Assembly: GCA_002269645.1 (NCBI GenBank)
Contig: NIVC01001545.1
Coordinates: forward strand, 180,886 to 244,885
DNA length: 64,000 nt
Reading direction: 5' to 3'
From: Macrostomum lignano
Lineage: Eukaryota
Shown here: positions 3,975-21,861 of the stretch, in pieces
Numbering within the stretch: the first letter of the stretch is position 1
How the letters are laid out: every line of letters starts with the position of its first letter
Position numbers and translations under genes: made by a program
The notes under the pieces: generated by a model
Databases searched by the model: none
The model's input: only the letters and a program-made list of their open reading frames with translations
Told to the model about the DNA's origin: nothing

Positions 3975-4181
3975 TCTGGATAGCCAGTTGACTCCTGTCT
4001 CTGTGGCGCAGTTTTGGTTGCCAATATGAAATACAATACACCAGTTTGAAAGGCCCACTGCCTGCTGCATTTTTATTGTTTGTGCAGATTGACAAATTCT
4101 TTATGGAATCCCTTGCTGTGTTCGTGCGCCTTGTCTTCTTGCCTTCTAGCAGCAGGCTCCCTGCTCCCCATCAGCAGTCTC

Positions 4182-4316
4182 AGTAGTAGGGGAAATGTGG
4201 ACTCTGCCGCAGGAATTTCCGTGGGAAAACCACGGGCCTATAGTGTGTAAACATAGCGCCTATGTAAATGCATTGGTGGACTCTGCCGCAGGGAAAGCCA
4301 CGGAATTTCCATGGGG
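4182..4316 (+). repeat. Left terminal inverted repeat of the Polinton
   Basis: Reverse complement of 20591-20725 with 3 mismatches in 135 bp; contains two copies of TGGACTCTGCCGCAGG. Confidence 0.95.
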
Positions 4317-5170
4317 GGGGTCGGAGAGCGAAATATACGGGCTTTTCATATTACCGATTCCAGAACCAGAATCGGTTCGAAGCTTTTCATATTGTCTGTT
4401 CCGTCTTCATAGTCGGTTCCAGAACCGTGATCCGATTCTGGAATTCGGTTCGAGAAATTTTCTCGATCTTTTGTCATATTTCTATAGAAACGAAAGGACG
4501 AATTTGAAATAACATTTCAAACATTTCAAAAAGAATACTAGTTTCTAGATTTTAGATAGACATGTTTTTATCCTTTAAGAAGTAGACAAAAATAGAATAG
4601 AAAAATTCGACGCTTTTCATTTTCCTACTCGATCTTCAATGAAAAGCCGAATAGAGCTCTATGTAAATGGATTGGTGGACTCTGCCGCCGGGGAAAGCAG
4701 CATAAGTTCCTGGGAAGCCCAAAACTGATTCTCTAAAAATAGTAAAAAACTTCTCTAGTGTACATTAGCCATAGTTAATTGAGAATTGGGTGAACCTGGC
4801 TTCCGATCTCCACAATATTTAAACTTTGTTGGCAGTGGGAATACATAGGCCTATGTTCATGAGTTCCTCCGCACTTTTTTACGAGTCTCGCAAATTGGAC
4901 TGAATTTGTTGTGAAAGTGAGCTTGCAAAGAGCCGTTTATTGCCTTGTTATGGTGTTTTCTTGATACTGCTGATTTGGCCGCGGGGAAGTGGGGTGCAGG
5001 TCTGGGGTGGAGGTCTTTAAAACTAACTGATGCACGCGACGGGGGGAATGTTATCAGTTTTATTATTATTATCGTTCAATAACGGTAAGAAAATAATTAG
5101 TGCATACACATATGTAACGTGTAAACGTATCTGTGTGTGTGTATATAGGCGATATTGCCTGGTGATTTGG

Positions 5171-5180
5171 ATATAAGGAC
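5171..5180 (+). promoter_or_regulatory. Candidate TATA-type promoter motif ATATAAGGAC (left end)
   Basis: 111 bp upstream of ORF1 ATG (5282); the identical 10-mer occurs on the minus strand at 20516-20525, outside the TIRs. Confidence 0.5.
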
Positions 5181-5281
5181 TGAAAAATTCTACTGAGCCA
5201 TTAAAAATAGATTTTGTTGATATTTAAACGGACTTCGAAATTTCAAATTTTCACAAAAAACCCTTGATTAAATTTTAAACC

Positions 5282-6823
5282 ATGAGCCATTCTCGGTGCC
5301 CATCCTACGTTCATGAGGTGTGTGTCACCTGCAATATTAGTATGCTCGGTGGACTAAAGCACCATGTAGCGAATGAAGGCTGCAGTGTCACCTGATGGCT
5401 ACTATGCCATGAATGCCAGTCCGTTGAGCTCTTCACCGTTAGAGGCCAAATCAAAAGGCATAAAAATCATTCGACTGTTAATTGGAGCTCTGCTGAAGAC
5501 CGCGAGCAGGCACGCATTACTGCTCTGGAAGTTGCACGTCAAGAGGAACGCAACAGGGCGGCAGAACGCATTCGAGAGCCGGTGAGCACTTTGAGTCAAG
5601 TTATCACAAGCTTATGCGGCCGAGTAACGAACACTGGTGACCAGCCCAACGCCCAGCCTGCTGCTGCTTCTGCTGCTCTACTCGACGGTGATGTCGGAGC
5701 TCCCCTGCTTGATGCTGCTGATGGAGGTGGCACCCCTGACTTCGAGCTGAATGTGCTGGACACCGCTTTCTTCGAGAACCTCGATGGTGAGCCTGAAGCA
5801 CAGGAGCAGCAAGAAATGCAACAGCAGCAGCAGCGGCGTGCAATCCCTGTTCCCGGAAAAAATATGGAGCGTGCCAGGATGCTGGCAGAAGTCAGCCTGT
5901 CCGACATGATTCGCGATATGGACTCGGGCCCTGCGCCTCCACCACCGCCACCACCGACTGAGGTTCAGCCTGCGGTCGAAGTCAGCCTGTCCGACGTGAT
6001 TCGCGATATGGACTCGGGCCCTGCGCCTCCACCACCGCCACCACCGACTGAGGTTCAGCCTGCGGTCGAAGTCAGCCTGTCCGACGTGATTCGCGATATG
6101 GACTCGGGCCCTGCGCCTCCACCACCGCCACCACCGACTGAGGTTCAGCCTGCGGTCGAAGTCAGCCTGTCCGACGTGATTCGCGATATGGACTCGGGCC
6201 CTGCGCCTCCACCACCGCCACCACCGACTGAGGTTCAGCCTGCGGTCGAAGTCAGCCTGTCCGACGTGATTCGCGATATGGACTCGGGCCCTGCGCCTCC
6301 ACCACCGCCACCACCGACTGAGGTTCAGCCTGCGGTCGAAGTCAGCCTGTCCGACGTGATTCGCGATATGGACTCGGGCCCTGCGCCTCCACCACCGCCA
6401 CCACCGACTGAGGTTCAGCCTGCGGTCGAAGTCAGCCTGTCCGACGTGATTCGCGATATGGACTCGGGCCCTGCGCCTCCACCACCGCCACCACCGACTG
6501 AGGTTCAGCCTGCGGTCGAAGTCAGCCTGTCCGACGTGATTCGCGATATGGACTCGGGCCCTGCGCCTCCACCACCGCCACCACCGACTGAGGTTCAGCC
6601 TGCGGTCGAAGTCAGCCTGTCCGACGTGATTCGCGATATGGACTCGGGCCCTGCGCCTCCACCACCGCCACCACCGACTGAGGTTCAGCCTGCGGCCGCT
6701 AATGAAGTGCAGCAGCCAGCACCTCTCTGCATCCAGCTGGTTCTGCCCAACAGTGTTACGGGTGAATATTGGATTGACTTGGGAGGGGCTTTCCGTATTC
6801 GCCTGAGCAATTCTCAATTCTAA
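5282..6823 (+). CDS. Polinton ORF1: Cys/His-rich N-terminus with LxCxE, acidic/Gln patch and nine 30-aa polyproline repeats; one in-frame TGA
   Basis: The frame of the 5582 track ORF extends upstream to ATG 5282 (MSHSRCPSYVHEVCVTCNISMLGGLKHHVANEGCSVT*WLLCHECQSVELFTVRGQIKRHKNH), with a single TGA at 5393-5395. Confidence 0.65.
5888..6697 (+). repeat. Nine near-identical 90-bp coding tandem repeats
   Basis: Unit encodes EVSLSDVIRDMDSGPAPPPPPPPTEVQPAV; copies start every 90 bp from 5888 to 6608. Confidence 0.97.
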
Positions 6824-7601
6824 ACTAATAACTCTAATGTACCAGTCGTTAAATATTAAATTAGCAAACATTCTGTGTTGAATTAAATTGCGAGATGATT
6901 ATCCGTATATTGAAAAAGTGAATAATGTTTATTTTTCTTTTCAACATCTCATTGCTATTTTTAAAGTTCATATTTATGCACGCAGTGCGCGTTGATCAAT
7001 TGCAAGCTGTGCTTGGGTGTGAATGCAGAATGGGTTTGATTCTGGTTGGGTTTGTAATCTCCTTCTTTAACTTGTGCTTCTAATAATGTAGCGTATCATT
7101 GCATTTTTAAAATATAAGTTTTAAAGCGCAATGAAGCGCAGAATTTTGGAAAAGTTTTCAGCTTTGAGTTATTTTGAATTTTTAGAATTCGTTTCATAAG
7201 ACCCTTTTATTAAACCCATTATGAGACCCCGAAATTTGGCACGTAACGACAAGACCCGAAGTACAACTTTCGAAAATATGTACACTTAATACGAGCGTAT
7301 ATCCACAAATTAGGGATTTGAATTTACTTTTGCAAGAAAAAATAATTTCACAAATATGTATTTCAGCAAATTTCCTCATCTAATTCTCATCGGAAATGCT
7401 CTAAGCCGTGTCATCAACCGAACCGAGATGGCTTCTTCGAGAGACACTTCATCATCATCATCATCAGCAAGTGATCGGCCGCTTGAGTCTACCAATTTTG
7501 CTATCGAAATCGAACCAACCAGTGAGTCAATCCAATGTGATTAGTAAAGCCAGTAAAGTAGACTCTTCCCTCTATAAGTACAAGCAAAAGTAGTCACGAA
7601 A

Positions 7602-7975
7602 CCCGATTCCCGATTCGCCGATTCACCGATTCCCGAATCGCCGATTCACCGATTCCCGATTCGCCGATTCACCGATTCACTGATTCCCGATTCACCGATT
7701 CCCGAATCGCCGATTCACCGATTCCCGATTCGCCAATTCACCGATTCACTGATTCTCGATTCACCGATTCACCGATTCCCGATTCACCGATTCCCGATTC
7801 GCCGATTCACCGATTCCCGATTCCCGATTCCCGATTCACTGATTCCCGATTCCCGATTCACCGATTCCCGATTCGCCGATTCCCGATTCACCGATTCCCG
7901 ATTCGCCGATTCCCGATTCACCGATTCCCGATTCACCGATTCCCGATTCACCGATTCCCGATTCACCGATTCCCG
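7602..7975. repeat. CCGATTC / CACCGATT microsatellite inside the Polinton, upstream of polB
   Basis: Mixed 7-8-bp units built on CCGATT. Confidence 0.92.
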
Positions 7976-8049
7976 CACCATAATGAGGTGGAATTAGGAA
8001 TATGATTTATAAATTTTAACTGTCGAGTGAAACGCGTACACCCAACAAC

Positions 8050-11000
8050 ATGCTAATTCATGCAGGCATTCAATTCAGCTCGGCTATTCACGCTAGTGCG
8101 CATGATGACATGCTGCAGGTCAGACGCTTCACTCCAGCATCAAGAGGTCTCGAGCCATTTCATTTTTTATCATCAACGAAGTTTGCAGTGCTACAGGCTG
8201 TTGAGATGAGATTCGATTCATCCGAGAATAAATCTATTCGAGCGCAGCTTAAGTTCAACATTAGAATGGTGAGAATCAAGGAAGCTGCGGTAATCAATGC
8301 AGAAGATAAGTGGATCGCATGCGGTCTTGAGCTTCTCTCTGATCTAAGAGATTTTGAATTGTGGTGGTTGCAGCAGTTTTCTGAGCTGGAACGCAAGATT
8401 GATGCCTACAATTCAAATGGGAGCGGTTGGATGTTGAGCAAATCACTATTTTGATCTGTGCTCTGCCCTCACTGATCGCATTCGCTACTATCGTGGACGA
8501 TGCGCGAATTTTTCTTTGCCCAATCAGCTGGCCGTTAAGAAGGCCATAATCAACCCACCGAGCGATGGAAACAATTGCTTTCTGTTTGCCTGTCTCGCTT
8601 ACCTGCACAACAGAGATCCAGGTGTGATGAAGTCTTGCCATCGACTAACAACTTACAGCAGATGGTTGGATGAAATCGATCTGAGCGGCATCGCACTACC
8701 AGTCGCAATTTCCGATTTAGACGTTATAGAGGAAAAGAATTCCGAAATCTGTTTCACAGTTTTTAGCTGGGAAGATGATGAGGCCTATGTCATTCGCCAG
8801 CCTCTTCCTGGGATTTGTGCCTCTCGCAAGGTTATTCCTCTACTCTTGCTTCGCAACTCCAGCTCCGATGATGCTGATGATGATGATGTGGTGATGAGAA
8901 TTGTGGGACTGGACACTGGTGTGCAGTTTCGAACCTGGACCGGCTCCTGAACAGCAAAAAAGGTCTGAGGAATCGCAAATGGTGTGAGAAGTGCATTTCT
9001 CCGTTTCGATTCCAGGAAGAGTTGGAGCAGCATCGAGACAGCTGCAATCCTCAACTGAAACCAGCCATCATGGAGCGCATGCCTGATGCAAGTAGCAACA
9101 CAATGCAGTTCATGGCTTGGGAAAAGACAATCAGTCCCCCATTTGTTGTCTACGCAGATTTTGAAGCTCTGAACACCCCACGTGAACCAGTGGAGTCTGA
9201 AAGAGAAGTTACTGTCACCAAGTTAACTGAGCATGTACCTGTAGCTGCTGGCTACATTGTTATTCCAAGAGAGGGTATGAGCAGCAAAATTCTGAGGCCG
9301 AGTGAGGATGTTTTCCTCTGCAGCGGACCCAATCCGAATTCTGTCGTGAAACAGTTTTTGGCCTCACTCGAACGTCTTGCTCGTGAAGTTTATGGTTGGA
9401 ATACCGAGTTTAGTCATCAGATTGCTGACAGAAACAGTGATGACAACAGGCGCAGCTTTCAAGATGCCACACAGTGCTATTTATGCAATGCAGTGTTTAT
9501 TTCATCTTCTGACAAGCACTGGGATCACGACCACCTCAGCGGTGAATACAAGGGTGCTGCCTGCGCTTCGTGTAACAAGCTTGCTCGGCTGAAACGGCGA
9601 TTTTTGCCAATAGTTTTCCACAATCTTCGCGGATATGACCTGCATTTGATTTTCTCAACTGCGCTGGGTGACATGACTGGTTGGAGGGTGAGCGTCATCC
9701 CCCAAACTGCTGAGTCGTACCTCTCCATGAGGGTCGAGTTCCAGATTGATGAGTATGAGAAAGATGGCGTAAAAAAGCCCCTGTTTTTCACGCTACAATT
9801 CATCGACTCACTGCAATTCCTACACAGCAGTCTCTCTCAACTTATTAAGAACTTGCCGGAGGACAACTGCCCCATCACTAATGCGATGCGATCAAAGTAT
9901 CCAAATCTCTCAAGCGATGTACTGTTTAGTAAGGGAGTTTTCCCGTATGATTATCTCTCGAATTTGAATGTGCTTGATGATCGCCAACTACCAAAAGTAG
10001 AAAGCTTTTTTAACCGACTCACCAACAGCCACTGTACCGAGGCGGAGTATCGGCATGCGCAGAAGGCCTGGACTGAATTCGAATCTACAACATTGCGCGA
10101 TTACATGCTCTGCTACTTGGAGCTGGACATCAGGCAACTAGCAGATATCTTTGAAGGGTTTCGAAGGCTGAGTTTGCAGGAAGACAAGCTAGATCCGGTG
10201 CATTTTGTGTCAACTCCAGGCTATCATTCGCTTCTGCACTAAAGTCTTCTCAAGTCAAGATCGAACTGCTAACTGACCTCGAGATGTATAAAATGTTTGA
10301 GAAAGGAATTCGGGGTGGAATGTCTTTTGTCAATGTACATCATGTCCAGAGCGAAAGTAGTGATGATGATAATGAACCAGCAGGTAGGAGTTTACTGGCT
10401 GTTGATGCTAATAACCTTTATGGTCATGCGCTCACAATGCCCCTACCTGTTGGCGGCTTTCGCTGGCTCAGTCAAGAGGAGCTGTGCTCCTGGTCCGAGT
10501 GCCGCTTTCTTTCCCTGGATGATGACGCTCCAATCGGCTACCTTGTCGAAGCGGATTTGCTCTACCCAGCCGAAATCCACACGGCAACGGAGGATCTTCC
10601 ATTCGCCCCAGAGAAAAGGTGTCCGAATTTCGAAGAATTTCCGCAGTACATGCGAGAATTATGGGTACTGCTTCAACATGACAATGATCATTCTCAGCAT
10701 CATCAGCAGCAGCAGCCCGACGCGAACACGACTGAGAATCCTACCGTTGCGCGCTACCGTGGAGTACAAAAATTAATGCTCACATGCCACAACAAGTTTT
10801 CCTATGTACTGCACTCGTCTGCTCTCCGATTCTATCTATCGCACGGAATGAAGTTGCATGGGCTCCACAGGATGATCGAATTCAGGCAAGAACCTGTCTT
10901 CGCGGACTACATTAAGATGAATAGCGAGAAGCGCTCTATGGCGAAAAATGATTTCGAGAAGGATTTCTATAAACTGAAAAATAACTCCCTGTTTGGCAAA

Positions 11001-11804
11001 ACAATGGAGAACGTGCGCAAGCGGCGGGACATCAGAGTGTGTACTGACAAGAAAAAAGCCAAGACTGTTTCTTCTCAACCAAATGTCGCATCATTCACAA
11101 TCATTACGCCGTCACTCAGCATCTTTGAGCTTCAAAAGCACGAAGTAACTCTTGATCGCCCAATCTTCATGGGGCAGTGTGTTCTAGATCGCTCCAAGAT
11201 CATCATGTATCGACTTTACTATGACAAAATAAAACCCATGCTAGAATTCCGTGATGGAGCAAGAGTTCGAGTTTGCGGTGGCGATACAGACTCGTTGTTT
11301 TTGAGCTTAGAGAACCTTAGTTTGCAGAGAGAAGTGCTGCCAATCCTGCATGCCGAAGGCCTCTTGGACACCTCCAATTTTTTCACTAATCATCCTCTCT
11401 TCTCGAATCGGCTAAAGGCCAAGCTAGGCTGCATTAAAGATGAAGCTGGTGGACTGCAACAGATTGAGTGGGTGCTGCTAAGGCCCAAGCTCTATTCTTT
11501 CCTCGCTGAAAGCTCGGCGGCATGCAAAGCAAAAGCAAAAGGCATCCAACGAAGCGTGCTGAAGAATGAAGTCTCCCACGACGACTACGTCAAGATTTTC
11601 AAGGGGGCTTCAAAGCTGTCGCTCACTGTTCGTCGAATTGGAAGTGAGAAACATCGCGTTTTCACCATTGAGCAACGTAAGCTCGCTCTCAGTATCTGGG
11701 AGGACAAGCGAGCGTGGACTGGCTCGAACTCAAGTCTTCCGTTCGGCCACTTTCAGCTGTTAATCAGGGGTAGTCCGAAAAGGACAGCGGACTGCTTAGA
11801 GTGA
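8050..11804 (+). CDS. polB: Protein-primed family B DNA polymerase, split at 3 frameshift junctions
   Basis: Motifs in order: GSGW, KKAIINP..NNCF, GHW, CxxC..H..C finger, YADFE (ExoI), CYLC..DHDH..G..C..CN (His-Me endonuclease insert), FHNLRGYD (ExoII), KGVFPYDY, IRGG, DANNLYG, KLKNNSLFGK, GDTDS, RPKLY. Junctions at about 8440-8452, 8888 and 10221. Confidence 0.97.
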
Positions 11805-12516
11805 TGCTTTGCACATCTGTGTAACCTTGGCGTTGAAATTTATTGACTTTTACTTATGTACTCCATGAATTGTTTCTGTGGTTTAATTAATCTGAATGAT
11901 GATGATGATGATAATGATGGATGATGATGATAATGACAATGCTGGAACGAATAGAGCCAATTCAGTTAGTTACATATTTGTAGTCTCTAAGCAACTAACT
12001 GAGCGTAACATTTTCGAGTTGAGTTGTTCCAGATTTATTTCAATACGAACTTGTGAAAGCCATGTTGGAATAATTTGCGGCATATTGGTCTGGCTTTCCC
12101 CTTTTTTATTATCCTTGAATTTTTGCACAATTGAATGAACTGAGTTACTGTCCTTTTTTATCTTTGCTAGCTTTGCTACTCATATTTTTTGTAACCATTA
12201 TCCAATGATTATCTGAAAAATATTTGCTTCCTTTTTCATTTCTGCTAGTTCTTGTTCGTTTTTGTCTTAGCAGTGCATAATCTGAGTGATGGGTGTGCTT
12301 TTTTTCTTGAGTTGGTGTGGTCTGATTAAATTTTCTATACTCAAACTAATATTGCGATTTCAGTTTTGAAAATAAAGAAAAAGTCGATCGAAGTCTGATT
12401 TTCAGGTATATTGATTAAAATGCACGCATCTTAATACGTGGTATATGCATGCAAGATTATTATATTTTTGTTCAGCTGTCGTCTTTTTATTTAATTGTTG
12501 AAACATATGGTTATTA

Positions 12517-13080
12517 TTAGCACAGAAAACGGACAAGCAAGGAAAAGTCGGAAATTAGCATGCTCATTGTTTTTGCACCACTGAGAACAAATGAGCCATT
12601 GTGAAAAAGCAGGCATTTGCAGAAGCTTAGTTTGCAGATCAAAGCAGAAAATGATTCTGGCTCATATTGAGCACTTGGTAAAGTGTTTACAAGATTAGCG
12701 AGGGGAAGTGCTCTGCACAAGTCAATCTTCCCATGAGCAGTAATAGTTTTAATCCGCACATGCACAGCTTGATGAGGCAGCAGTTGAGCAGGCACTCTGC
12801 GATGCAGCATAGCCACGAAGCGACGAGCGGCCCTGACTGAGGCCGAGTAGCTCCGGGCGCCACAGATACTCAGTTGTCCAGTCGGATAGAGCAATAGAGT
12901 CACTCTGGGATTCCGCATCCTCTTGATAAGCACTCGGGGCCAGACGGGACGATAGATGACATGAGCCATGCTGAGAGCCAGTTCCCGCAGAGGCAATTGG
13001 GCACCCCTGCCTCCAGCAAGTCTCAGATCCACGCCGCCGACCAGATTGGTCACTCGCAGGGCTGTCGCAGGTGTACTCAT
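12517..13080 (-). CDS. TATA-box-binding protein (TBP)-like, core domain only, 187 aa, intronless
   Basis: Two-repeat TBP pattern: VTNLVGGVDL...LPLRELAL...IYRP..P.VLIKRMRNPRVTLLLYPTGQLSICGARS...AARRF, then YEPESFSALICKL...LLFHNGSFVLSGAK. AATAAA lies about 25 nt past the stop (plus-strand TTTATT 12486-12491). Confidence 0.9.
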   Translation of the reverse strand: MSTPATALRVTNLVGGVDLRLAGGRGAQLPLRELALSMAHVIYRPVWPRVLIKRMRNPRVTLLLYPTGQLSICGARSYSASVRAARRFVAMLHRRVPAQLLPHQAVHVRIKTITAHGKIDLCRALPLANLVNTLPSAQYEPESFSALICKLSFCKCLLFHNGSFVLSGAKTMSMLISDFSLLVRFLC

Positions 13081-13593
13081 TTAGAGAGTCCTTTCTGCCT
13101 GTGGTACTGTCTTTGCGAGCTTTTGAGTGGTGCGGGCACACCTCGCTTCTTAAGTTGATACAGAACTTCGGTTTCAGCCAGTTGTAGTACAGTAATACAT
13201 TTTTCACTGCGCAACCAGTATCAGATGCTTGAATCAAAGGTGATCCCAGATCCTCTAGGTTGTACACCTGTCTGCCAAGCAGCTCAGTCAGAAAGATGGA
13301 CTTTTCACCCCGCTTGTCCAGGTGGGACCGTAAGCAATGTTTAGAATGTCATTTGCCAAATGCATGTACGGTCGAGATCCATCTGTCCACTTGAAATGAT
13401 GCAAATTCTTTGAGAGCTTTCTGTAATGCACTTGCATCTCAGGTGAGATTCTCTCCCATGAGAACGGAGAGGCGTACACGTGATGAGTGATATGGTAACT
13501 GCCAGCCCGGACTTGGGCAATGGCCAGCTCCTTCACAACGAAATCTCTGCTCGATCTCTCGCGTGGGAAGCCTTGGAAGTCAATATAGTTCAT
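12749..13593 (-). CDS. Polinton-type DEDD-like 3'-5' exonuclease-fold protein (one frameshift near 13307; C-terminal limit uncertain)
   Basis: YIDFQGF..FVVKELA...H...W.DG..Y then, after a shift, GEK..FLTELLGRQVYNLEDLGSP...CAVKNV...WL. I recall this pattern from Polinton accessory genes. The repaired frame overlaps the TBP ORF. Confidence 0.65.
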
Positions 13594-13646
13594 GATCGGA
13601 TGGTTTCAAGACGCAAGATGTCGGGAAGCCGACTCAGTTCCCCTTC

Positions 13647-14327
13647 TTAAATAGTTTTTTTCCTGCTCAGCTGTAGCCAGGCTCTCCCACTCCCGAATCC
13701 CTTAACTGTATGATGTGCAGGGGTGGCCTCTGGAGAAACAGCCGGTTTAGAAATTAGCTGCCTTACTGACTTTCCTATAGCCGAAGCTGGGATGTTAAGC
13801 TTTTTGTCTTGAAGCAATGAGACAAACTCACTCCAGCCTACCGGCTCGTTGGCACATTTCGAATCCCTCACCGCACTGTGAAACAAATCCAGGATGTTTG
13901 AGGAGGGTATTGTCTTCCCAGAAATTTGCGCCTCGCCATTTTCGGACACCCGAATCAGAGAGGGATTGCCAGATAGGATGGCCCATAGACTGCGGGCTCT
14001 CGCTTTAAACTTCTGCGGCACGGATTGGGTGATCTTTTCCCCCCAGCTGCTTGGTGCAATATCTGTTTTCAGCATCTTTGCATCACTCGCAGGTACCGCA
14101 CCATCCTTTCCAGTCCGCTTGCGCTTGACCAGCAAACTCTTCATCGCATCATGGTACATGGCAGCTTTCACATCGTCTGGGCAATCCTCGGCAAGCAAAA
14201 TATCATTGCATTTCCTCTGCGCATATCTCACAGCAGTGTCCATTTCAGACTCGACTGGCTTCAAATTCTGTGTGAGCATGTCGTACTCTGACTTGGGGAT
14301 CAGAACCATTTCTGAGAACTTATTCAT
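13647..14327 (-). CDS. Polinton conserved hypothetical protein (226 aa)
   Basis: Intact ORF tightly packed in the gene block; EMVLIP...VPQKFKARARSLW...GE..I.G..IPSSNILDL resembles a recurrent Polinton family. Confidence 0.65.
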   Translation of the reverse strand: MNKFSEMVLIPKSEYDMLTQNLKPVESEMDTAVRYAQRKCNDILLAEDCPDDVKAAMYHDAMKSLLVKRKRTGKDGAVPASDAKMLKTDIAPSSWGEKITQSVPQKFKARARSLWAILSGNPSLIRVSENGEAQISGKTIPSSNILDLFHSAVRDSKCANEPVGWSEFVSLLQDKKLNIPASAIGKSVRQLISKPAVSPEATPAHHTVKGFGSGRAWLQLSRKKTI

Positions 14328-14631
14328 TTTGCTTCTTTTTCTTCACTAGCTTTATTAGAATGTAGAGAATTTTGATAAAACCCGTATTTAGCAGATCCGC
14401 AGTTCTTCTATGTGTAGAAATTTTGCGGATTATTTGCTTTTGCTTCACCAGCGCTGCCTTTTGAGTGAGTGAGAACGACAGAGTGTTTTGCAATAGGTTG
14501 TAGCAGGCCTCAATGAGAAATTCACGTACGGCTTTTGGACCCGCTCTGATCAACAGACGTTTAAAGCTGATGGAATATTTCGGTGACGCGAGAACATCAA
14601 ACAAACTTTCATGTGAGTCAAAGGTTTCCAT
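14320..14631 (-). CDS. Small basic Polinton protein (103 aa) with a C-terminal amphipathic basic helix
   Basis: ATG 14631 METFDSH...EACYNLLQN...QKAALVKQKQIIRKI...GFIKILYILIKLVKKKK; overlaps its neighbours by 14 and 8 nt. Confidence 0.65.
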   Translation of the reverse strand: METFDSHESLFDVLASPKYSISFKRLLIRAGPKAVREFLIEACYNLLQNTLSFSLTQKAALVKQKQIIRKISTHRRTADLLNTGFIKILYILIKLVKKKKQNE

Positions 14632-15337
14632 TATCATTAGTGTTGCAGAATATAGAACAAATGGCGAAATCTCGGCTGTTATTCTTAAGTGTAAACAGGT
14701 GGGGTCGCTGATTGGGCAGGATTCGAGCCCGGACGCGCAGCTCATCAGGGGTGGAAGGGTGAAAATCCAGGAGCAGGTAGGCTCCCCTGCCGTGCGATGT
14801 CACGTGCTTGAACACTGACAGCAGAAAGCCGGGCTTCTCAGCAAAGCACTGCCTGCCCAGCGCTGCAATCTGCAGCTGGTCTCTGGGGTTCTTCATGATC
14901 ACAAAGTACATCGCATTCAGACTCATTGTTCGCAACTCCTTCCCTTTAAAAAATACATTTTGGGTGAGCATAACCAGAAAGCAGGGCAAATGATGGGCAA
15001 TTCCAGTGAAAACATTTCGCATTGCAGCAGAATTGGAAGTTTCTTCAATCAGGTCATCAAATACAACCAGGTCATTGGGTCTCAGTGCGGTCTCGATACT
15101 GCTGGGAAATCCCTGCTGCAGGTGCACGCCGAGACTGCTGAGCTCAGAGTGTGCTGCTTGTGAAATCCCGTAGTACCACAGAACTCTCCCAGGCTTCACA
15201 TCAAACAGGACATCCTTGTATTGTATCAGATGTTTCACGAAGGTTGTCTTTCCTGCATTTGTAGGCCCGCTGACAATCATGCAGCTTCCCTGTCGCAGGC
15301 GCACATCATAACAGTTTATCCGCTCACGTGTTTCCAT
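14618..15337 (-). CDS. A32/FtsK-like genome packaging ATPase
   Basis: Walker A GPTNAGKT, Walker B LVVFDD, plus HH...LTQN..F...RT.SLNA.YF..KNPRD. Confidence 0.95.
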   Translation of the reverse strand: METRERINCYDVRLRQGSCMIVSGPTNAGKTTFVKHLIQYKDVLFDVKPGRVLWYYGISQAAHSELSSLGVHLQQGFPSSIETALRPNDLVVFDDLIEETSNSAAMRNVFTGIAHHLPCFLVMLTQNVFFKGKELRTMSLNAMYFVIMKNPRDQLQIAALGRQCFAEKPGFLLSVFKHVTSHGRGAYLLLDFHPSTPDELRVRARILPNQRPHLFTLKNNSRDFAICSIFCNTNDNGNL

Positions 15338-15362
15338 TGCCTGTTGAGCTAAATCTTGATTT

Positions 15363-15887
15363 TTAAAATCTAATTAAATTTCTTTTTCTTAAGCAACTCT
15401 CAAACCTTTGCAGAATTCTTTCATTCAAGTGGCTCTGCTGATTTGCATGGAGGTGCCGCAGAACCCACTCAAACGAGCGCTTGAAACGAAACTTTTGATA
15501 GGCAAACAAGAGACAGAACAAACCGCATTTAGCAGAGTCACAGCTCTGAATTCGATTCACATTGCTACGTAAGTAGAATGGAGAATACCAAAAGGATTTC
15601 AGTGCTCTGTGAATGATCTCTAAAGTGCTGGAGTCCCAGCCCAGAGAGTTAAAGAGTTCTATGGAATTCTCCTTATCAGCATAACAAACCACCCAGTGAC
15701 CGAAGGATGAGCTGTACTGAAGCAGAAAGAAAATAAACTTACATCGAGATAAATTTCTTTTGAGAGTTGCTCGCTGAATAAAGTTTAAAGCATAAGATGT
15801 TTTATTTATTGAATTCAAGACAATAATTAAACAGTTATTTTGTGGCAAAAAGCTTTTAGCCAGTTTAAGCAGTTGAAAAGCATCCAT
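15363..15887 (-). CDS. Adenain-like cysteine (maturation) protease
   Basis: GHW...ELFNSLG...IQSCDSAKCGLFC, parallel to adenain HW/FEPFG/Q...CGLFC. Confidence 0.9.
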   Translation of the reverse strand: MDAFQLLKLAKSFLPQNNCLIIVLNSINKTSYALNFIQRATLKRNLSRCKFIFFLLQYSSSFGHWVVCYADKENSIELFNSLGWDSSTLEIIHRALKSFWYSPFYLRSNVNRIQSCDSAKCGLFCLLFAYQKFRFKRSFEWVLRHLHANQQSHLNERILQRFESCLRKRNLIRF

Positions 15888-15910
15888 ATTAGCGTTGCGC
15901 CAGCGTACTC

Positions 15911-17192
15911 CTAGGATGGAAAATCTAGCAGAATCTCCCTGTGCTTGGTGACCTCAATCAGTGAGTCATACAGGCACATAACAATCAGAGATACAGGCTC
16001 CTCCAGGGCCTGTCGGAAGCGAATCTCCAGCCGCAAATTGCCCTCCTTCTGTCCGTACCACAGGGCCGCTCCCTCAGGCGTGAGATCGAATGCGAAAGCT
16101 GTGTTGCCGTTGGAGAACAACTGGTAGGGGACCCACGGAACCGAGTTGGTAGGGCTGGCTGACTGACAGCTTTTCAGGTAGTGCAAGTACTCTCTCACGA
16201 ATGAATTATTCTCAGGTGCAAATGCAGCGTGGCACATGGCTTCACCACCTTTCTTTAGTGCTAGCTGGCTGAGGTTGAAGCTCTGGAACTCGAAGGGGCT
16301 GGAATGGTGATGGCCATTGAAGGCTCGGTGGTTCACGAAGACCAGCATAACGAACTTCGGCAGTTTGCCATGGGTGAATCCTTCAATGTTTTTTGACTGA
16401 ATTCCCTGGGTAGAATAAAGTTTTGCATTTCGGTTCGCTCGATGGGGTAAAGTGCGTTCTGATTGGTAGTCCCTGTTCATGCGCCAGGCTGATGTGAGGC
16501 GCCACTTTGACTCGGCGCAGGTTCAGAATGCAGTGGGAGATTTCCATTCGGTAGGCTGTGTTGTTCTCATCTGGGGTTCGGATGGCGAATGCAGTATCGC
16601 TGGGCATCAGCTTGATGTGCAGGTGTAAATTGTTCAGCAGCAGAACAGGACACTGGAAAATGTCGCTGAGCAGTGGTCCCGCATACTCCACCCAGCGGGA
16701 CTCCCTGTGTCTCTCGGCATGCCCCTCAGCAGCAGTTTCGGGTTCCAGGAATCCGGCGGGGTAGAACTTTAACTGCTGAGCATCGGATGAGCTCATGAGA
16801 GCTTTTAGGTAGGCATGGTAGGGGTAGAGCTGGTCTCCACCTGATACAATGCGCTGGTTGATGCTCACGATTACATCTGAGAATGCCGTAGACAGGACAA
16901 AGTTTTCTGGGTGCACCCCACTGTCTCTGCGCTCAGTGACAACTCCATCGGCATTTCGAACCTCCTCCCTCATCAAAGCCCCGCCAAGCCGGACTAGGCG
17001 ACAGCGAATATACAGGAATGAGCTCAGCAGATCAGTGTACTCATCAGCCGATGGATGACAGTCGAATTCAATAGGTGAGTTAGTAGCAATAGAGTTCACG
17101 GGGTGAATATCAACATATGTGGATTTTTCAATGGCAGTCTGCAGCACGGGGGACTTGAACAAATCGAGTCTCGGGTTGAATCCGTAAGCCAT
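15911..17192 (-). CDS. Major capsid protein (double jelly-roll), two frameshifts at about 16410-16470
   Basis: LDLF..P.LQT.IE...V.I.P......PIEF...DEYTDL, YPYHAYL and HGKLPKF...AFNG..SPF.FQ..N. The bridge NQNALYPIERTEMQNFIL lies in the third frame. Confidence 0.92.
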
Positions 17193-17194
17193 TG

Positions 17195-17605
17195 CTATGA
17201 GAGCGAGTCCAGAACACGTTTCACAGTCTTTTTGCTCACTTTTTGCTTTCCTTTGCCTGTTTTCTTGCTTTGAGTTTTAGACCTCCCTTTCTTAGGTTTA
17301 TTTCGCCCTGACTGGCTTCTTTTCGGTGATTTCTCCGTCTTACTCTTTTTCTTCTTTTTTGTCTGCTTCTTACTGCCCTGTTTGACTAGTCGCTGCTTTG
17401 GTCTGTTTCTATTGCTTCTGCTGTTGCTGCTGCTACCGCTGGCGGTGGTATGCCCTGGCTTTGATAGCGATATTGACTTTGTGGAAGCTTCTGGAGGAGG
17501 CTGGTAAGTCATGATTCCTGGAAAACTCCCACAGCCATAGAGCGCCGGCTTTTGGCTTCCTGCCAGAGTCCCTGAATACTGACGAATCAGCTGTTGGTAG
17601 TTCAT
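17195..17605 (-). CDS. Lys/Arg-rich putative genome-condensing core protein (adenovirus pVII-like), 136 aa
   Basis: Very basic C-terminal half; lies between the capsid genes; LYGCG fits the adenain site (M/I/L)xGx|G. Confidence 0.6.
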   Translation of the reverse strand: MNYQQLIRQYSGTLAGSQKPALYGCGSFPGIMTYQPPPEASTKSISLSKPGHTTASGSSSNSRSNRNRPKQRLVKQGSKKQTKKKKKSKTEKSPKRSQSGRNKPKKGRSKTQSKKTGKGKQKVSKKTVKRVLDSLS

Positions 17606-18411
17606 TGTATTAGCCTTTCCCGAATATGAACTGTGAGCAGAACAGGGCTGCTGCTCCGAGCAGTCAGTGAGTAGCCAAAGATGTCACGCAGTTGAAATCT
17701 AATGCCATGTAGAAAATTAGCTTTCTGAATCGGGAAGAATATTGCTTTCTTAAACACTTTGCTCATGTAGCTGCCCCATTCGACATCGGATGACATGCTC
17801 ACAGTTCGCAGCACGGAGTTCCAGTTACAGTTTGTTCGCTCCACAATGCTGCAGTGCAAGTTGATCAGGTTGGTGGGCGGACAACCGATGCAGCAGAGTG
17901 ACACTTGCCGTCCGGGTGGGATCTTCACAGGCTGGTTTCCGAATCCCAGCCACTGCAGAATTTTACTTGATGGAAGGAACAATTCTGCTCGAGCCGTGTT
18001 GTTGAGCACTACCGTTCTCAACTCTTGGATTTCAAACTTTATGCCAATATCTCTAGCGCTGCTTCGCCCCATTAAACCGGACTCATCAGCTTCCATTTCA
18101 GACTCCCTTTCGCTCATTGCATCGAAGAACAGTGACTCAGAGTTGGCCAGCAGCTCATTCATGCGCTCAACCAGTTCCTCCACTCTAGCAAAGCGTCCGG
18201 GTTGAAGAACCAGGGCCTCATGCTCTCTTCCATCTGAGACAGTGAAGCAGTAAGGCTCGTCAACATTGAACCATGCAGCAGGCAGATGGATTTCAGCCAG
18301 ACCTGCCTCATAGTCCACATTTCGATCCAAGTAAATAGGTGAAGGCAGGTGAAAATGAAAGTCACTAGGAGTACCTTCAGCATTTTCGCTACAAATGATG
18401 ATGCTTCTCAT
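17602..18411 (-). CDS. Minor capsid (penton, single jelly-roll) protein
   Basis: F...LP.PI.L...YE.GL.EI..P..WFN at the N-terminus and INLHCSIVE...LRTV...F....F.PI....I..QLRD..G...V.L..H.R at the C-terminus. The first ATG is 18411. Confidence 0.88.
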   Translation of the reverse strand: MRSIIICSENAEGTPSDFHFHLPSPIYLDRNVDYEAGLAEIHLPAAWFNVDEPYCFTVSDGREHEALVLQPGRFARVEELVERMNELLANSESLFFDAMSERESEMEADESGLMGRSSARDIGIKFEIQELRTVVLNNTARAELFLPSSKILQWLGFGNQPVKIPPGRQVSLCCIGCPPTNLINLHCSIVERTNCNWNSVLRTVSMSSDVEWGSYMSKVFKKAIFFPIQKANFLHGIRFQLRDIFGYSLTARSSSPVLLTVHIRERLIQ

Positions 18412-18441
18412 AGTTGGGAATGGCTGCACAATGTCGGTATC

Positions 18442-19508
18442 TTACACTTTTCTTAAGTCCTTCTCATCCACCCAGTCAGTGGACTTGTAGCCGGCCCACT
18501 TGACGAGATATCGGATCTTTCCCTTCCGCTTCTCAGTCTTCAGAACCTTCTCGATTACATACAGCCGCTGCGAGTCCGGAACAGCTTGCAGCTCATGCTC
18601 GTGGAAGAGGCCTCTAATGTCTTCCCCCTTCATGTCTCGAATCCTGTACATGTAGGGATAATGCTTTGGTGCCCTAAACACTATGGTGTACACCTCCTCG
18701 CTCCAGTTCGCCTTGTATCCCTTCCTGAAGAGTCTGGGTGCATTGGAAATCCGCACTGATTGGTTTTCACAGAACTTCGGTTTTCTCAGTTTCTCAACTG
18801 TCTCAATCGCTTTCCCATCATAAAGGTTCATCCACACTTCAGTCTCGTTTGCTTTGCTGACATTCATTGGTGTAGTCTTGATGCTTCTGTGGAAAGTATT
18901 GTTATAGGACTTGACCAGTTTAGGCAGCACATCAAGCCATTGTAGAGTGCTGTTGTGAGTAAAGTAACGCCACATCTTGCTTTTTAAAGTTCGATTCCAT
19001 CTTTCAATTATGGCTGCTTTGTGCTCACTGCTAGTTGGAAACGCCAGAATCCCCCGGTCTATGCAGAACTGGCGAAAAATTGCGTTGACAAACTCCTTTC
19101 CCTGATCTGTGCGGACAGTGCGCGGCTGCCGCTTTGAGCTCTTCAGCATGCTCTCAAACGCAGATTTCACTTCTGCCGCGCTCTTAGACTTCAGTGCTCG
19201 GCCATTGCAAATTTAGACAAAACATCAATGCAGGTGAGAATGTATTTATGCCCGCGATTATACTTTGCAAACGGAATCATTTCCACCAGATCCATCTCCC
19301 ACTGATCATCAATGGCCCTCACTATTATTGGCGCCCTTGGAAATCGTACTCTAGCTGGCTTATGCAGAGTGTGTACTGGCTGCTGACTTAGCCACTGCTC
19401 AATGCTCTTGACTCCAATATGCTCGCCTCTTTTTCGCAGTTCATGTTGCAGTTTTGAAGAACTGCAATAGCTCGCAGGCTGATTTGGATTGAAATAAATT
19501 TTTTCCAT
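18442..19508 (-). CDS. Retroviral-like DDE integrase with C-terminal chromodomain (one frameshift near 19195)
   Basis: WEMDL...CIDVLSK, RTDQGKEF, IIERWNRTLK; chromodomain YVIEKVL...RYLVKWAGY...WV.E.DL. Adding one C restores AEPLKSK. Confidence 0.96.
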
Positions 19509-19675
19509 TTTCAGAAACAAAGAAACATTTTTTTTAGGTTTTCTTAAGACATTGAAAATGTATAGCGCATGTGAAAGCAAGCATATATTTTTTATTTTCA
19601 AACAAAGAGATGGAAAGCAGGTCTGGATAAAAAGCTCGTAGCACAGAGTTTGTCTCAATGTCAGAGGGTCTGCAA

Positions 19676-20443
19676 TCAGTCGAAGCACGGCCTGGGCAGC
19701 TTCATGGCGTCCAATCTGCGCAGAGCGAACGGCGGCTGCTTGCGTTTCCTGGCGTTCTCAGCGGCGGCTGCTTGAGCTCGGAACTGGTACCAGACTGGGT
19801 CCTCTTGCAGATCAGTGTCCTGCCGAGGAATCGCTCCAGCTGCTGGCTTGGTCAGTTGCAGAGGCGTTGAAGTGGCAAACGCTGTGTCGATTTGCAGATT
19901 GGATGGCATGCCAGCCACATCGCCAGCAGCAGCAGGAGCATCGTCCTCCGCCTTCACTACCGGCTTGGTCTCTTCCGCGTTTTCGCCAGCACCGTCTTCA
20001 TTTTCGATGCTGTTGGAGGAAGATCCCGACTCCAGCTCGTATACATCGGAAATCTCACGTGGAGCCGATAGCTGCTCGTCGATCCAATCCGCGTACTGCC
20101 ACAGCTTTCGCCACAGCGGCGGTGTCAGCGGCACGGTGTTCCGCTTAAGAAACTCGTCGCAGCAGTCCTCCGGCAATCGCTTTAACCAGATAATGCCGTT
20201 TTTCACTTCGATGAACTTATCGAAGCCGAGTTTGACAACCTTTGGCTGTTTGTCCAAGGCCGCCTTGACAAGCGATCGCTTCAACTCCTTGAGCTTCTCC
20301 CACTGACGGATGTTCAAATTGAAGCCGGGGACTCCAGGTTTCAAACTCGCAGTGCTGCCATGTCGGTAAAATTTTCTGATAGCAATGAACATAACTCCTT
20401 CATACTCCTGTATTTGGAGTTTATATCCTTCGCCGATGTCCAT
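19676..20443 (-). CDS. PC4/Sub1 (p15)-domain protein with two tandem PC4-like domains and an acidic tail
   Basis: IGEGYKLQIQEYEGVMFIAIRKFY....LKPGVPGFNLNIRQWEKLKE matches PC4 ([24 protein letters not shown]...KPGRKGISLNPEQWSQLKE). A second, degenerate copy reads LGFDKFIEV...VPLTPPLWRKL...WIDEQL. Confidence 0.85.
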   Translation of the reverse strand: MDIGEGYKLQIQEYEGVMFIAIRKFYRHGSTASLKPGVPGFNLNIRQWEKLKELKRSLVKAALDKQPKVVKLGFDKFIEVKNGIIWLKRLPEDCCDEFLKRNTVPLTPPLWRKLWQYADWIDEQLSAPREISDVYELESGSSSNSIENEDGAGENAEETKPVVKAEDDAPAAAGDVAGMPSNLQIDTAFATSTPLQLTKPAAGAIPRQDTDLQEDPVWYQFRAQAAAAENARKRKQPPFALRRLDAMKLPRPCFD

Positions 20444-20515
20444 GACTTAAAATCTAACAGAATAAACTATCTCGTCGAAAAAAATCGTTTTTTCATGAAT
20501 CAAAGAGATTTTTTG

Positions 20516-20525
20516 GTCCTTATAT
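20516..20525 (-). promoter_or_regulatory. Candidate TATA-type promoter motif ATATAAGGAC (right end)
   Basis: 82 bp upstream of the PC4-like ATG; within CTATATAAGGAC; identical to 5171-5180. Confidence 0.5.
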
Positions 20526-20590
20526 AGACTAAACCACTGCAGCAGACATACAGCAATAGAAAAACATAGGCCTATGTTCTCTCACTAAGG

Positions 20591-20725
20591 CCCCATGGAA
20601 TTTCCATGGCTTTCCCTGCGGCAGAGTCCACCAATGCATTTACATAGGCGCTATGTTTACACACTATAGCCCCGTGGTTTTCCCACGGAAATTCCTGCGG
20701 CAGAGTCCACATTTCCCCTACTACT
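20591..20725 (-). repeat. Right terminal inverted repeat of the Polinton
   Basis: Ends ...ATTTCCCCTACTACT; 132/135 identical to the left TIR. Confidence 0.95.
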
Positions 20726-20945
20726 ACTCTCCCTGCTCCCCATCAGCAATCTTCCTGCACCCCATCAGCAGTCTCCCTGCTTCCCATCAGCAATCTCCCT
20801 GCACCCCATCAGCAATCTCCCTGCACCCCATCAGCAGTCTCCCTGCTCCCCATCAGCAATCTCCCTGCACCCCATCAGCAGTCTCCCTGCTTCCCATGAG
20901 CAGTCTCCCTGCACCCCATGAGCAGTTTCCCTGCATCCCATCAGC
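20726..20945. repeat. 22-bp minisatellite interrupted by the Polinton
   Basis: Unit CTCCCTGC(T/A)CCCCATCAGCA(G/A)T, about 10 copies; one more copy lies left of the element at 4157-4181. Confidence 0.9.
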
Positions 20946-21861
20946 TAAGTAAAACTGGAGCCAGACGCCATTCAATTCATTTTTCCGTCATTACTTATCG
21001 GCAGCACTTGCGAGCGCAGACAGACGGCTCAGCTCAGCTTTACGTTTAAAACCGTCGCCACAGAAAACGATATCTATTAATTTATTTGAATTATTTCAAC
21101 CAACGCTCTTACTACAAATAATTTACGCAAAATTGTCTTAACGATGCAACAGGAGAAAAAATGAATAAATACGAAGTAACTGATATACGAGTAAAGCTTT
21201 ACTTGTACTCATAAATAATAAATAAACAACTTGTCAATGGAATTCCAACAGTTTCATCAATAATTCTCAGAATTTGCATAACTGACTACTGACAGGAATT
21301 GGCATCAGCTCAGAAAACGGGATTTCCAATCAAGTTGCAGAATTGTAGATGCGGCAAAATAATATTTATTAATTTATTAATAATCTTATCATTCAGTAAC
21401 AACAATAAATAAATATGAAACACAGGCTCACCACAAGGCAATCAGACAGCGCATCCAAGTAAGCAGTGTACTTTTACTATCTATTATTAGACTTTTAAGC
21501 AAGCGCTTGGGACTTCAGAGTAATGAAATTATCATAACTAAACGATACTCTATAACAATAATATTATTAATAATAGTAATAGTTAACACAGGAAAAACGC
21601 GAGTAAAACGCACACAATTGAGACTGGCTGTAGGGATTGAAGGGGATTGCCAAACACCATTATTATAGAAGCGGACAAAAGAAACCTTTTGTTAATTTTT
21701 TATCCAGTATCGAAAGTGACGAAGCGATTGATCTGATGCGACATGCGGGTGAGCACAGGTGATGCAGGGCTTGTCCGTGCTCAGTAGCCGTAACGATCCT
21801 GAAAGGCAGGTGCAGATTATGATGGTAGCTAAATTACTCTCAGTACTTTACTGGTTAATTG

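Follow-up and report, generated by a model that had tools for sequence, protein, structure and literature searches.

A TATA-binding protein carried by Maverick/Polinton elements of Macrostomum lignano and a candidate cognate promoter box

The described system that appears closest to the locus reported here is that of the herpesvirus KSHV, whose ORF24 protein has a TATA-binding protein (TBP) fold and serves TATTWAA late promoters in a virus without an RNA polymerase of its own (PMC12529657). ORF24 is a protein of 752 amino acids that carries four intercalating phenylalanines, binds Pol II directly and needs five partner proteins (PMC12529657). TBP-like proteins are also found in large dsDNA viruses, almost all of which encode TFIIB as well (PMC7221094). 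Among virus-like mobile elements, a TBP is mentioned for mirusvirus-like elements (PMC10675990), and the label TBP is used in the legend to a figure of adintovirus-like elements (PMC8502044 and its preprint), so that a TBP in a Maverick-like element is not unprecedented. The available text of PMC8502044 gives no analysis, promoter or mechanism for the labelled protein. The terms TBP, TATA and PC4 are absent from the main text of 10.64898/2026.06.19.733378 and of PMC10748475, and our literature search found no paper on a Maverick TBP with a cognate promoter; an earlier description may exist in preprint supplements, figures, subscription journals or repeat databases. The wider question is whether Mavericks are autonomous viruses, and how they would then time the expression of their capsid genes without an RNA polymerase or a helper virus.

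We analysed a window of 64,000 nt of the Macrostomum lignano genome (contig NIVC01001545.1, forward-strand positions 180,886 to 244,885; coordinates below are those of the window) in which an initial annotation had described a virus-borne TBP gene. The gene lies in a Maverick/Polinton of 16.5 kb (4182-20725), and the epithet is confirmed in this sense by the inverted repeats and the Maverick gene set. The terminal inverted repeats, 135 nt each and 98% complementary, occupy 4182..4316 (beginning AGTAGTAG) and 20591..20725 on the plus strand, and the 6-bp flanks AGTCTC and ACTCTC agree at five of six positions, as for a 6-bp target duplication. The insertion site is a tandem repeat of about 22 nt (CCCTGC..CCCATCAGCA..CT), seen at 4150-4181 and 20726-20950. 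Both the protein-primed polymerase (pPolB) and the rve integrase are present, each in pieces in this copy, together with a packaging ATPase and an adenain protease. The polymerase region (8050..11804, plus strand) matches Pfam DNA_pol_B_2 on two pieces, and a short tandem array of CCGATTC-type units lies directly upstream of it at 7600-7980. In the left arm, an ORF at 5816-6823 (plus strand) is based on a 60-nt tandem repeat encoding a proline-rich unit of 20 residues; the antisense frame of this repeat yields a spurious Pfam TBP match on the ORF 5678-6871 (minus strand), which we rejected because none of its stretches passed. Outside the element, the window holds a host ArfGAP-domain exon at 28756-29235 (minus strand; Pfam E 3e-27).

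The TBP gene is the last of a compact block of 11 minus-strand genes and is convergent with the polymerase. At the far end of the block, a PC4/p15-like gene of 255 aa (19676..20443; Pfam PC4 E 3.6e-6) also occurs in a second Maverick lineage introduced below, where it is matched by tblastn and by PC4 at E 6.5e-4, below the cut-off. Its product shows by eye an apparent second, more diverged PC4-like repeat and an acidic tail, and could be a transcription cofactor or the single-strand DNA binding protein of the element. It is followed by a retroviral-type integrase with a chromodomain (18442..19508, two pieces in this copy; rve E 1.5e-5 and Chromo E 5.4e-5, both below Pfam cut-offs), by a putative minor capsid ORF and a basic, core-like ORF (17195..18411), and by the putative major capsid gene (15911..17192, two pieces in this copy). 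We take the last to be the major capsid gene from its position, its size and a resemblance to Polinton capsid proteins, and the core-like and minor capsid labels are likewise presumed from position. The putative major capsid protein had no Pfam, PDB or profile-comparison match and a single-sequence model with a pLDDT of 31.6; Pfam and PDB gave no match for the other two. Next come the adenain-type protease (15363..15887; Pfam Peptidase_C5 E 1.8e-4, above the cut-off) and the packaging ATPase (14618..15337), recognized from its sequence, including the Walker A motif GPTNAGKT; a sister-copy ATPase scored E 0.009 against Pox_A32, below the cut-off, and a Pox_A32 search of the genome returned no match. 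The three ORFs between the ATPase and the TBP gene (13288..14637, starts at 14637, 14327 and 13593) are conserved in copies of the same lineage, and Pfam and PHROG searches gave nothing for them. The one adjoining TBP (13288-13593) does so in both lineages and starts with an acidic motif, IDFQGF...VVKELA, which is reminiscent of nuclease folds, with no Pfam or PHROGs match. No TFIIB was detected in the element: none of the 15 PF00382 matches in the genome falls within it, and tblastn with part of the host TFIIB gave a best E of 3.8.

The ORF at 12517-13080 (minus strand) is a real two-lobed TBP. As initially annotated, it is intronless and limited to the core; its 187 aa contain both PF00352 repeats (E 1.6e-21; 76.3 bits against a cut-off of 22.9, in two stretches) and also match 35 distinct solved TBP sequences. 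An AlphaFold2 model, computed from an 86-row alignment rich in canonical TBPs, had a mean pLDDT of 95.4, and its best Foldseek match was human TBP (1cdw, TM 0.80), so that profile and structure searches alike returned TBP. The AATAAA ascribed to the gene, a putative poly(A) signal at 12486..12491 (minus strand), begins 28 nt past the first base of the stop codon and also occurs in other copies, lying at most 80 nt away in 7 of 10 subfamily copies checked. Four sequencing runs taken to be possible RNA, when compared with 8000-20700, all proved to be contigs; they span the TBP gene, and one has even coverage of the entire region, as expected of DNA. The protein is 27% identical to the host TBP and 24% to the host TRF2; host TBP, TRF2 and TFIIB are genes separate from the element.

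At least 152 TBP matches occur in the genome (150 of 234 candidates were scored). Besides the lineage of the window element (lineage A), a second Maverick lineage (B) carries, at the same place at the block end, a TBP that is 32-36% identical to that of lineage A, as well as the PC4-like gene and a capsid protein about 40% identical to its lineage A counterpart. A search with the lineage B TBP gave 44 of 130 matches at 70% identity or more, fragments included. Several lineage B copies are without most of the polymerase and part of the integrase and retain the TBP, PC4-like and packaging genes; these polymerase-deficient copies look non-autonomous. The same genome has multiple copies of at least two further Maverick lineages, whose capsid proteins are recognized by Pfam and which carry no TBP.

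Comparison of the DNA-facing surface with canonical TBP was based on yeast residue numbers anchored on the host TBP, with base-facing positions as listed in Table 1 of PMC12529657, the usual TBP assignments for the remaining DNA-side and TFIIA positions, and a family alignment of 16 rows (7 from lineage A, 2 from lineage B and 7 other records). The four intercalating phenylalanines of canonical TBP (F99, F116, F190 and F207) correspond in the element protein to P48, Y65, F144 and F159. The initial annotation had the first-repeat pair replaced by Trp and Tyr, and this held for Tyr65 in place of the second Phe; the first aligns to Pro48 rather than to Trp47, since the segment YRPVWPRV pairs without gaps with host YNPKRFAA in both MAFFT and profile-profile alignments, which puts Trp47 at the position of Arg98. 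Trp47 may nonetheless stack on DNA. In lineage B this loop contains insertions, and its register shifts from alignment to alignment. The remaining assignments were borne out: the C-lobe Phe pair (F144, F159) and the N-lobe Asn (N12) are retained, the C-lobe Asn is lost to T112 in the motif KTIT, and the stirrup glutamates E140 and E142 are present in all 16 rows. In addition, S145 stands in place of Pro191. The corresponding C-lobe glutamates of canonical TBP contact TFIIB (PMC7221094).

The altered positions are fixed rather than drifting. In every one of the 16 rows F116 is changed to Y, T124 to C, V122 to S or T, N159 to T, V161 to T or S, and both Q158 and V203 to K, and P191 is never Pro (S, T or N instead), while N69, V71, L114, F190, F207, E186 and E188 are unchanged throughout. 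Between the two lineages, 10 of 17 base-face positions agree, versus 50 of 150 elsewhere (Fisher p 0.037). Mere loss of DNA binding would be expected to leave the surface free to drift, and a changed surface that is fixed speaks against such a loss; with both TFIIB glutamates also fixed in lineages A and B, a decayed decoy is disfavoured.

Upstream of the genes of these elements, an 8-mer recurs across copies, YWTAAGAA, that reads as a TATA box with G at position 6. Aligned in TATA register, 13 sites have C (9) or T (4) at position 1, T (7), A (5) or C (1) at position 2, then T, A, A, G and A without exception, and A (12) or G (1) at position 8. On the minus strand of the window element the commonest form, CTTAAGAA, lies 74 nt upstream of the TBP ATG (13147..13154), upstream of the ORF starting at 14637 (14682..14689; TATAAGAA at the matching place in lineage B), upstream of the packaging ATPase within the 3' end of the protease (15386..15393), upstream of the putative minor capsid gene within the 3' end of the integrase (18450..18457), and upstream of the integrase itself (19541..19548), in non-coding DNA that differs among subfamilies. 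The form TTTAAGAA precedes the ORF starting at 13593 (13644..13651), where other subfamilies and lineage B have TATAAGAA, and stands 149 nt upstream of the basic ORF 17605 (17747..17754). A CCTAAGAA box lies 104 nt upstream of the putative major capsid gene (17289..17296), and other copies have CTTAAGAA or CATAAGAA 102-110 nt before that gene. No upstream box was seen in this copy for the protease and ORF 14327. The element minus strand thus has eight YHTAAGAA sites placed 52-149 nt before a block ATG, except two at 40 and 46 nt; over all sites the distance from box to ATG ranges from 33 to 149 nt.

When all k-mers located 25-150 nt upstream of ATGs in the 8,083-nt block were compared, the top 6-mer was TAAGAA (8 of 11 genes, 9 occurrences), and its score was reached by the best of all k-mers in 5, 28 and 7 per 1000 permutations for 6-, 5- and 7-mers, respectively, a procedure that corrects only for the choice of motif, with the 25-150 nt interval and the 14637 start set after the sites had been seen. 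In lineage B, where the motif was preset and gene starts were read by eye, TAAGA occurs 6 times in sense and never in antisense in 5,460 nt, and 5 of the 6 sense sites precede orthologues of boxed lineage A genes (integrase, capsid, ATPase and two downstream genes; binomial p 0.002), at comparable distances. The lineage B capsid box lies 105 nt before its gene, as against 102-110 nt in lineage A. The property enriched is the placing of the motif and not its abundance: TAAGA occurs at 1.4 per kb per strand in the host flanks versus 1.7 on the sense strand of the block, without overall enrichment, and CTTAAG is not enriched in the whole window (18 versus 24.9 expected).

Within coding DNA the box imposes rare codons, which indicates a constraint at the DNA level. 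TTA makes up 7% of Leu codons and AGA 27% of Arg codons; nevertheless, Leu-Arg pairs at the integrase and protease boxes are written TTA AGA in 19 of 19 cases (10 of 10 copies in the protease box, 9 of 9 in the integrase box), versus 2 of 178 away from boxes. The 11 loci counted are related, so these counts are not independent; five Leu-Arg pairs at a third box, whose reading frame may not be coding, were excluded from both. The box also occurs in different reading frames and in non-coding DNA, and in the box upstream of the capsid gene the DNA stays C-N-TAAGAA although it overlaps a codon for Pro, Leu or His. The box of the structural block is thus a candidate promoter.

The box follows the TBP in its distribution among the Mavericks of this genome. 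In two other lineages, found via PF21738, the only TBP hit in 20 stretches belongs to a lineage A element lying next to one of them, and no PC4-like gene was detected; none of 120 ORFs in 19 TBP-less Maverick stretches, many of which are not element genes, has an exact YHTAAGAA upstream, and in one of these lineages TTTAAGAG lies upstream of the protease. This co-occurrence involves four non-independent lineages, A and B being of common ancestry. Ordinary TATA boxes stand before other element genes, namely the PC4-like gene in both lineages (TATATAAG at 20519..20526 on the minus strand of the window), the left-arm ORF, and the polymerase and TBP genes of lineage B. Before the TBP gene stands the box in lineage A and TATAAAAG in lineage B. 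Another candidate motif, ATATAAGGAC, was dropped, being an ordinary TATA that matches no genes but the PC4-like one and the left-arm ORF.

Published structures allow the box to be set against the protein. The C-lobe of TBP contacts the 5' half of TATA, where Pro191 excludes bases other than T at position 1 and V203, L205 and I194 lie at position 2; wild-type TBP does not select G at positions 6 and 7, and its cavity can accept G at position 6 (PMC1636458). Position 1 of the box is C in 9 of 13 sites, and Pro191 is lost in the element TBP; position 2 varies among sites, and V203 has become K; position 6 is G in all 13 sites, and most of the fixed changes lie in the N-lobe, which faces it. Judged from these structures, the departures of the box from TATA appear to coincide with the changes in the protein. 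Because its cavity accepts G at position 6, host TBP could also read the TATAAGAA variants (PMC1636458).

We infer that the box is a promoter, that the element TBP reads it and binds TFIIB, and that the genes linked to the box are late. It is reasonably probable, in our view, that the protein is a late-promoter TBP of altered specificity and recruits the TFIIB and Pol II of the host. Under such a scheme host TBP would first read the ordinary TATA boxes on the regulatory and replication genes of the element; the element TBP would next bind YWTAAGAA before the integrase, capsid-module and packaging genes and recruit host TFIIB through its intact glutamate stirrup, and host RNA polymerase II would thereby be brought to the boxed genes, the outcome being an early-to-late switch. 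The ordinary TATA boxes at the PC4-like gene, the left-arm ORF and the lineage B polymerase and TBP genes make the order of host TBP, then element TBP, plausible. The lineage A TBP gene, itself behind a box, would depend on transcription running through from the preceding gene or on its own product. The initial annotation had suggested altered TATA specificity like that of TRF/TLF paralogs: the altered specificity is supported, with YWTAAGAA as its candidate target, and the protein resembles a viral late-promoter TBP more than it does TRF2.

The element TBP is under purifying selection. Of 50 lineage A loci, 8 broken or partial ones were dropped and the 42 intact ones gave 26 distinct sequences; among 11 chosen subfamily representatives (55 pairs) the median dN/dS was 0.22 (range 0.07-0.48), ratios that are rough because the gene is mosaic and dS in the C-lobe often saturated. 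For lineage B the median was 0.38 (range 0-1.18, 54 pairs), a weak signal with few changes. In 5 of 5 pairs of copies, identity within the TBP gene is 90-100% in the first 300 nt, falls to 78-88% in the following 60 nt and is 32-85% in the remainder. This step in identity, near nt 330-360 of the gene (12517-12750 of the window) in all five subfamily pairs, implies that the two TBP lobes have different histories. In one copy the packaging-side proteins are 86-99% identical and the polymerase merely 58-62%. It seems that crossovers between the packaging and polymerase arms have repeatedly fallen within the TBP gene.

The capture of the TBP by the element is probably old, to judge from its place in the tree. 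In a careful tree of 46 rows, hand-picked out of 155 in a quick tree and carrying a tool warning that long branches meet, lineages A and B group together (100/97), outside a second clade (100/96) that unites archaeal and eukaryotic TBPs with TRF2. The phylogenetic check proposed with the initial annotation thus separated the element TBP from host TBP, and the AU test rejected a clade of the two (p 0.013); a joint clade with TRF2 was not rejected (p 0.059), with long-branch warnings, and the free tree separates the two. Between the two clades fall short unnamed metagenome TBPs, nine of which share the Asn-to-Thr change; those with Thr at the second Asn position are of 170-190 aa, on contigs of up to 19 kb. 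Scans of viral contigs found no relatives. Metagenome contigs gave 13 weak loci, of which the two that were opened are prokaryotic, one with an archaeal-type TBP. The ESM Atlas returned generic TBP clusters, and its PC4 leads were all under 0.9.

Several other explanations of the protein and the box were weighed. The boxes could be promoters read by host TBP or another host factor, with the element TBP a relaxed, TAF-free helper that has no private sequence and increases transcription of the element genes. The TATAAGAA and TATTTAAG variants are indeed near TATA, wild-type TBP can accept G at position 6 (PMC1636458), and N69, V71, L114, F190 and F207 are unaltered; yet the commonest form, CTTAAGAA, differs from TATA at three positions, ordinary TATA boxes are used at other genes of the element, TBP-less Mavericks of the same nucleus are without the box, and the changed residues are fixed rather than drifting, so we consider this explanation unlikely. 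Sequestration of host TFIIB (or of Brf1/Brf2) by a decoy that damps host transcription without productive DNA binding, which the initial annotation had also raised, would agree with the retention of E140/E142 in all 16 rows alongside the loss of two of the four Phe and one of the two Asn, and with the divergence of some basic N-lobe positions (R141 is A in most of lineage A). It is not favoured, and in our estimation is quite improbable: changed DNA-facing residues are fixed across lineages that are 32% identical, the DNA face is better conserved between them than the rest (10/17 versus 50/150, p 0.037), two new lysines lie on the DNA-facing side, an element without its own polymerase needs host TFIIB, and the box would be left unexplained.

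The invariant TAAG core might instead be a late initiator used by the RNA polymerase of a large DNA virus acting as helper, in the way that virophages rely on helper late promoters, the TBP having another job. Virophage promoter motifs exist in published work, and TAAG matches the baculovirus late initiator. This too seems very improbable to us, since the 8-nt box is in TATA register and always at least 33 nt from the ATG, a spacing that fits a -30 element, no helper virus was observed, and the TBP-less lineages, which would depend most on a helper, are without the box. A signal at the RNA level unrelated to TBP (a trans-splice acceptor, a 3'-end or a translation signal) ranks lower again. The host does trans-splice 30% of its genes and has operons (PMC8629364), and the block is tightly packed and one-directional; the host acceptor, [T/C]TNCAG (PMC8629364), is unlike the box, and several boxes fall within the preceding gene, one of them some 100 nt short of its stop, unlike a cleavage signal. 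The TBP may in that case work with Pol III factors, the stirrup also serving Brf1/Brf2 (PMC7221094), or bend DNA for replication or packaging. Virtually no weight attaches to a recent neutral retrocopy of host TBP with dN/dS near 1, which the initial annotation had named as the outcome that would undo its proposal. The gene is intronless, core only and followed by AATAAA, as a retrocopy would be, but it is 27% identical to host TBP, its dN/dS is about 0.2 (lineage A median 0.22), its block-end position is kept in two distant lineages, and the AU test rejected a clade with host TBP (p 0.013).

TBP is among the most conserved of proteins, and a change at most of its specificity positions with the TFIIB contact kept would amount to a reprogrammed TATA recognition. 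Building on the altered-specificity reading, we propose tentatively, as something that may well prove otherwise, that some animal Mavericks carry a self-encoded early-to-late switch made of one small TBP and a co-evolved box and served by host TFIIB and Pol II. If true, viral TBPs would be used in a third way, in addition to those of herpesviruses and giant viruses, and TBP and promoter would form a naturally orthogonal pair. The short metagenome TBPs that share the Asn-to-Thr change may belong here too, with a separate box for each. A dedicated TBP and a defined 8-nt box make the question of Maverick capsid timing biochemically testable.

Set beside known systems, the element shares with Mavericks, Polintons and adintoviruses its inverted repeats, pPolB, rve integrase, ATPase and adenain (PMC8502044). 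Its TBP resembles TRF2/TBPL1 in having lost intercalating Phe and kept the TFIIB stirrup; host TRF2, however, has Y, R, H and F at the Phe positions as against P, Y, F and F, keeps both Asn and groups with cellular TBPs in the free tree. With the TBP-like proteins of large dsDNA viruses it has in common a two-lobed TBP in a dsDNA virus-like genome (PMC7221094), and structural matches to them in BFVD are 7-20% identical. In those viruses (PMC7221094), the C.L3.2 glutamate is about 40% conserved and the stirrup has drifted, and the L5.1 Phe is about 90% conserved, whereas in the element the glutamates are invariant and the N-lobe Phe positions changed. No TFIIB was detected in the element, and the pairing of a TBP with a cognate TFIIB in the same genome is not found here; in Foldseek, cellular TBPs scored TM 0.78-0.84 versus at most 0.76 for large-virus TBP-like proteins. 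Like the vTBPs of beta- and gammaherpesviruses, the element TBP would serve a non-canonical TATA in a genome without its own RNA polymerase, and polar residues replace hydrophobic ones on its DNA face, including V122 and V161 (PMC12529657). ORF24 is without the TFIIB glutamates (PMC12529657), whereas the element protein is a 187-aa core with two of the four Phe and both glutamates, and thus not the multi-domain type with a Pol II-binding N-terminus, four Phe and no glutamates. What is new is the proposed pairing of protein and promoter, viral TBPs and the TBP label on a related element being already known. By analogy, the element TBP appears to work most like ORF24, while belonging to neither the herpesvirus nor the large-virus group.
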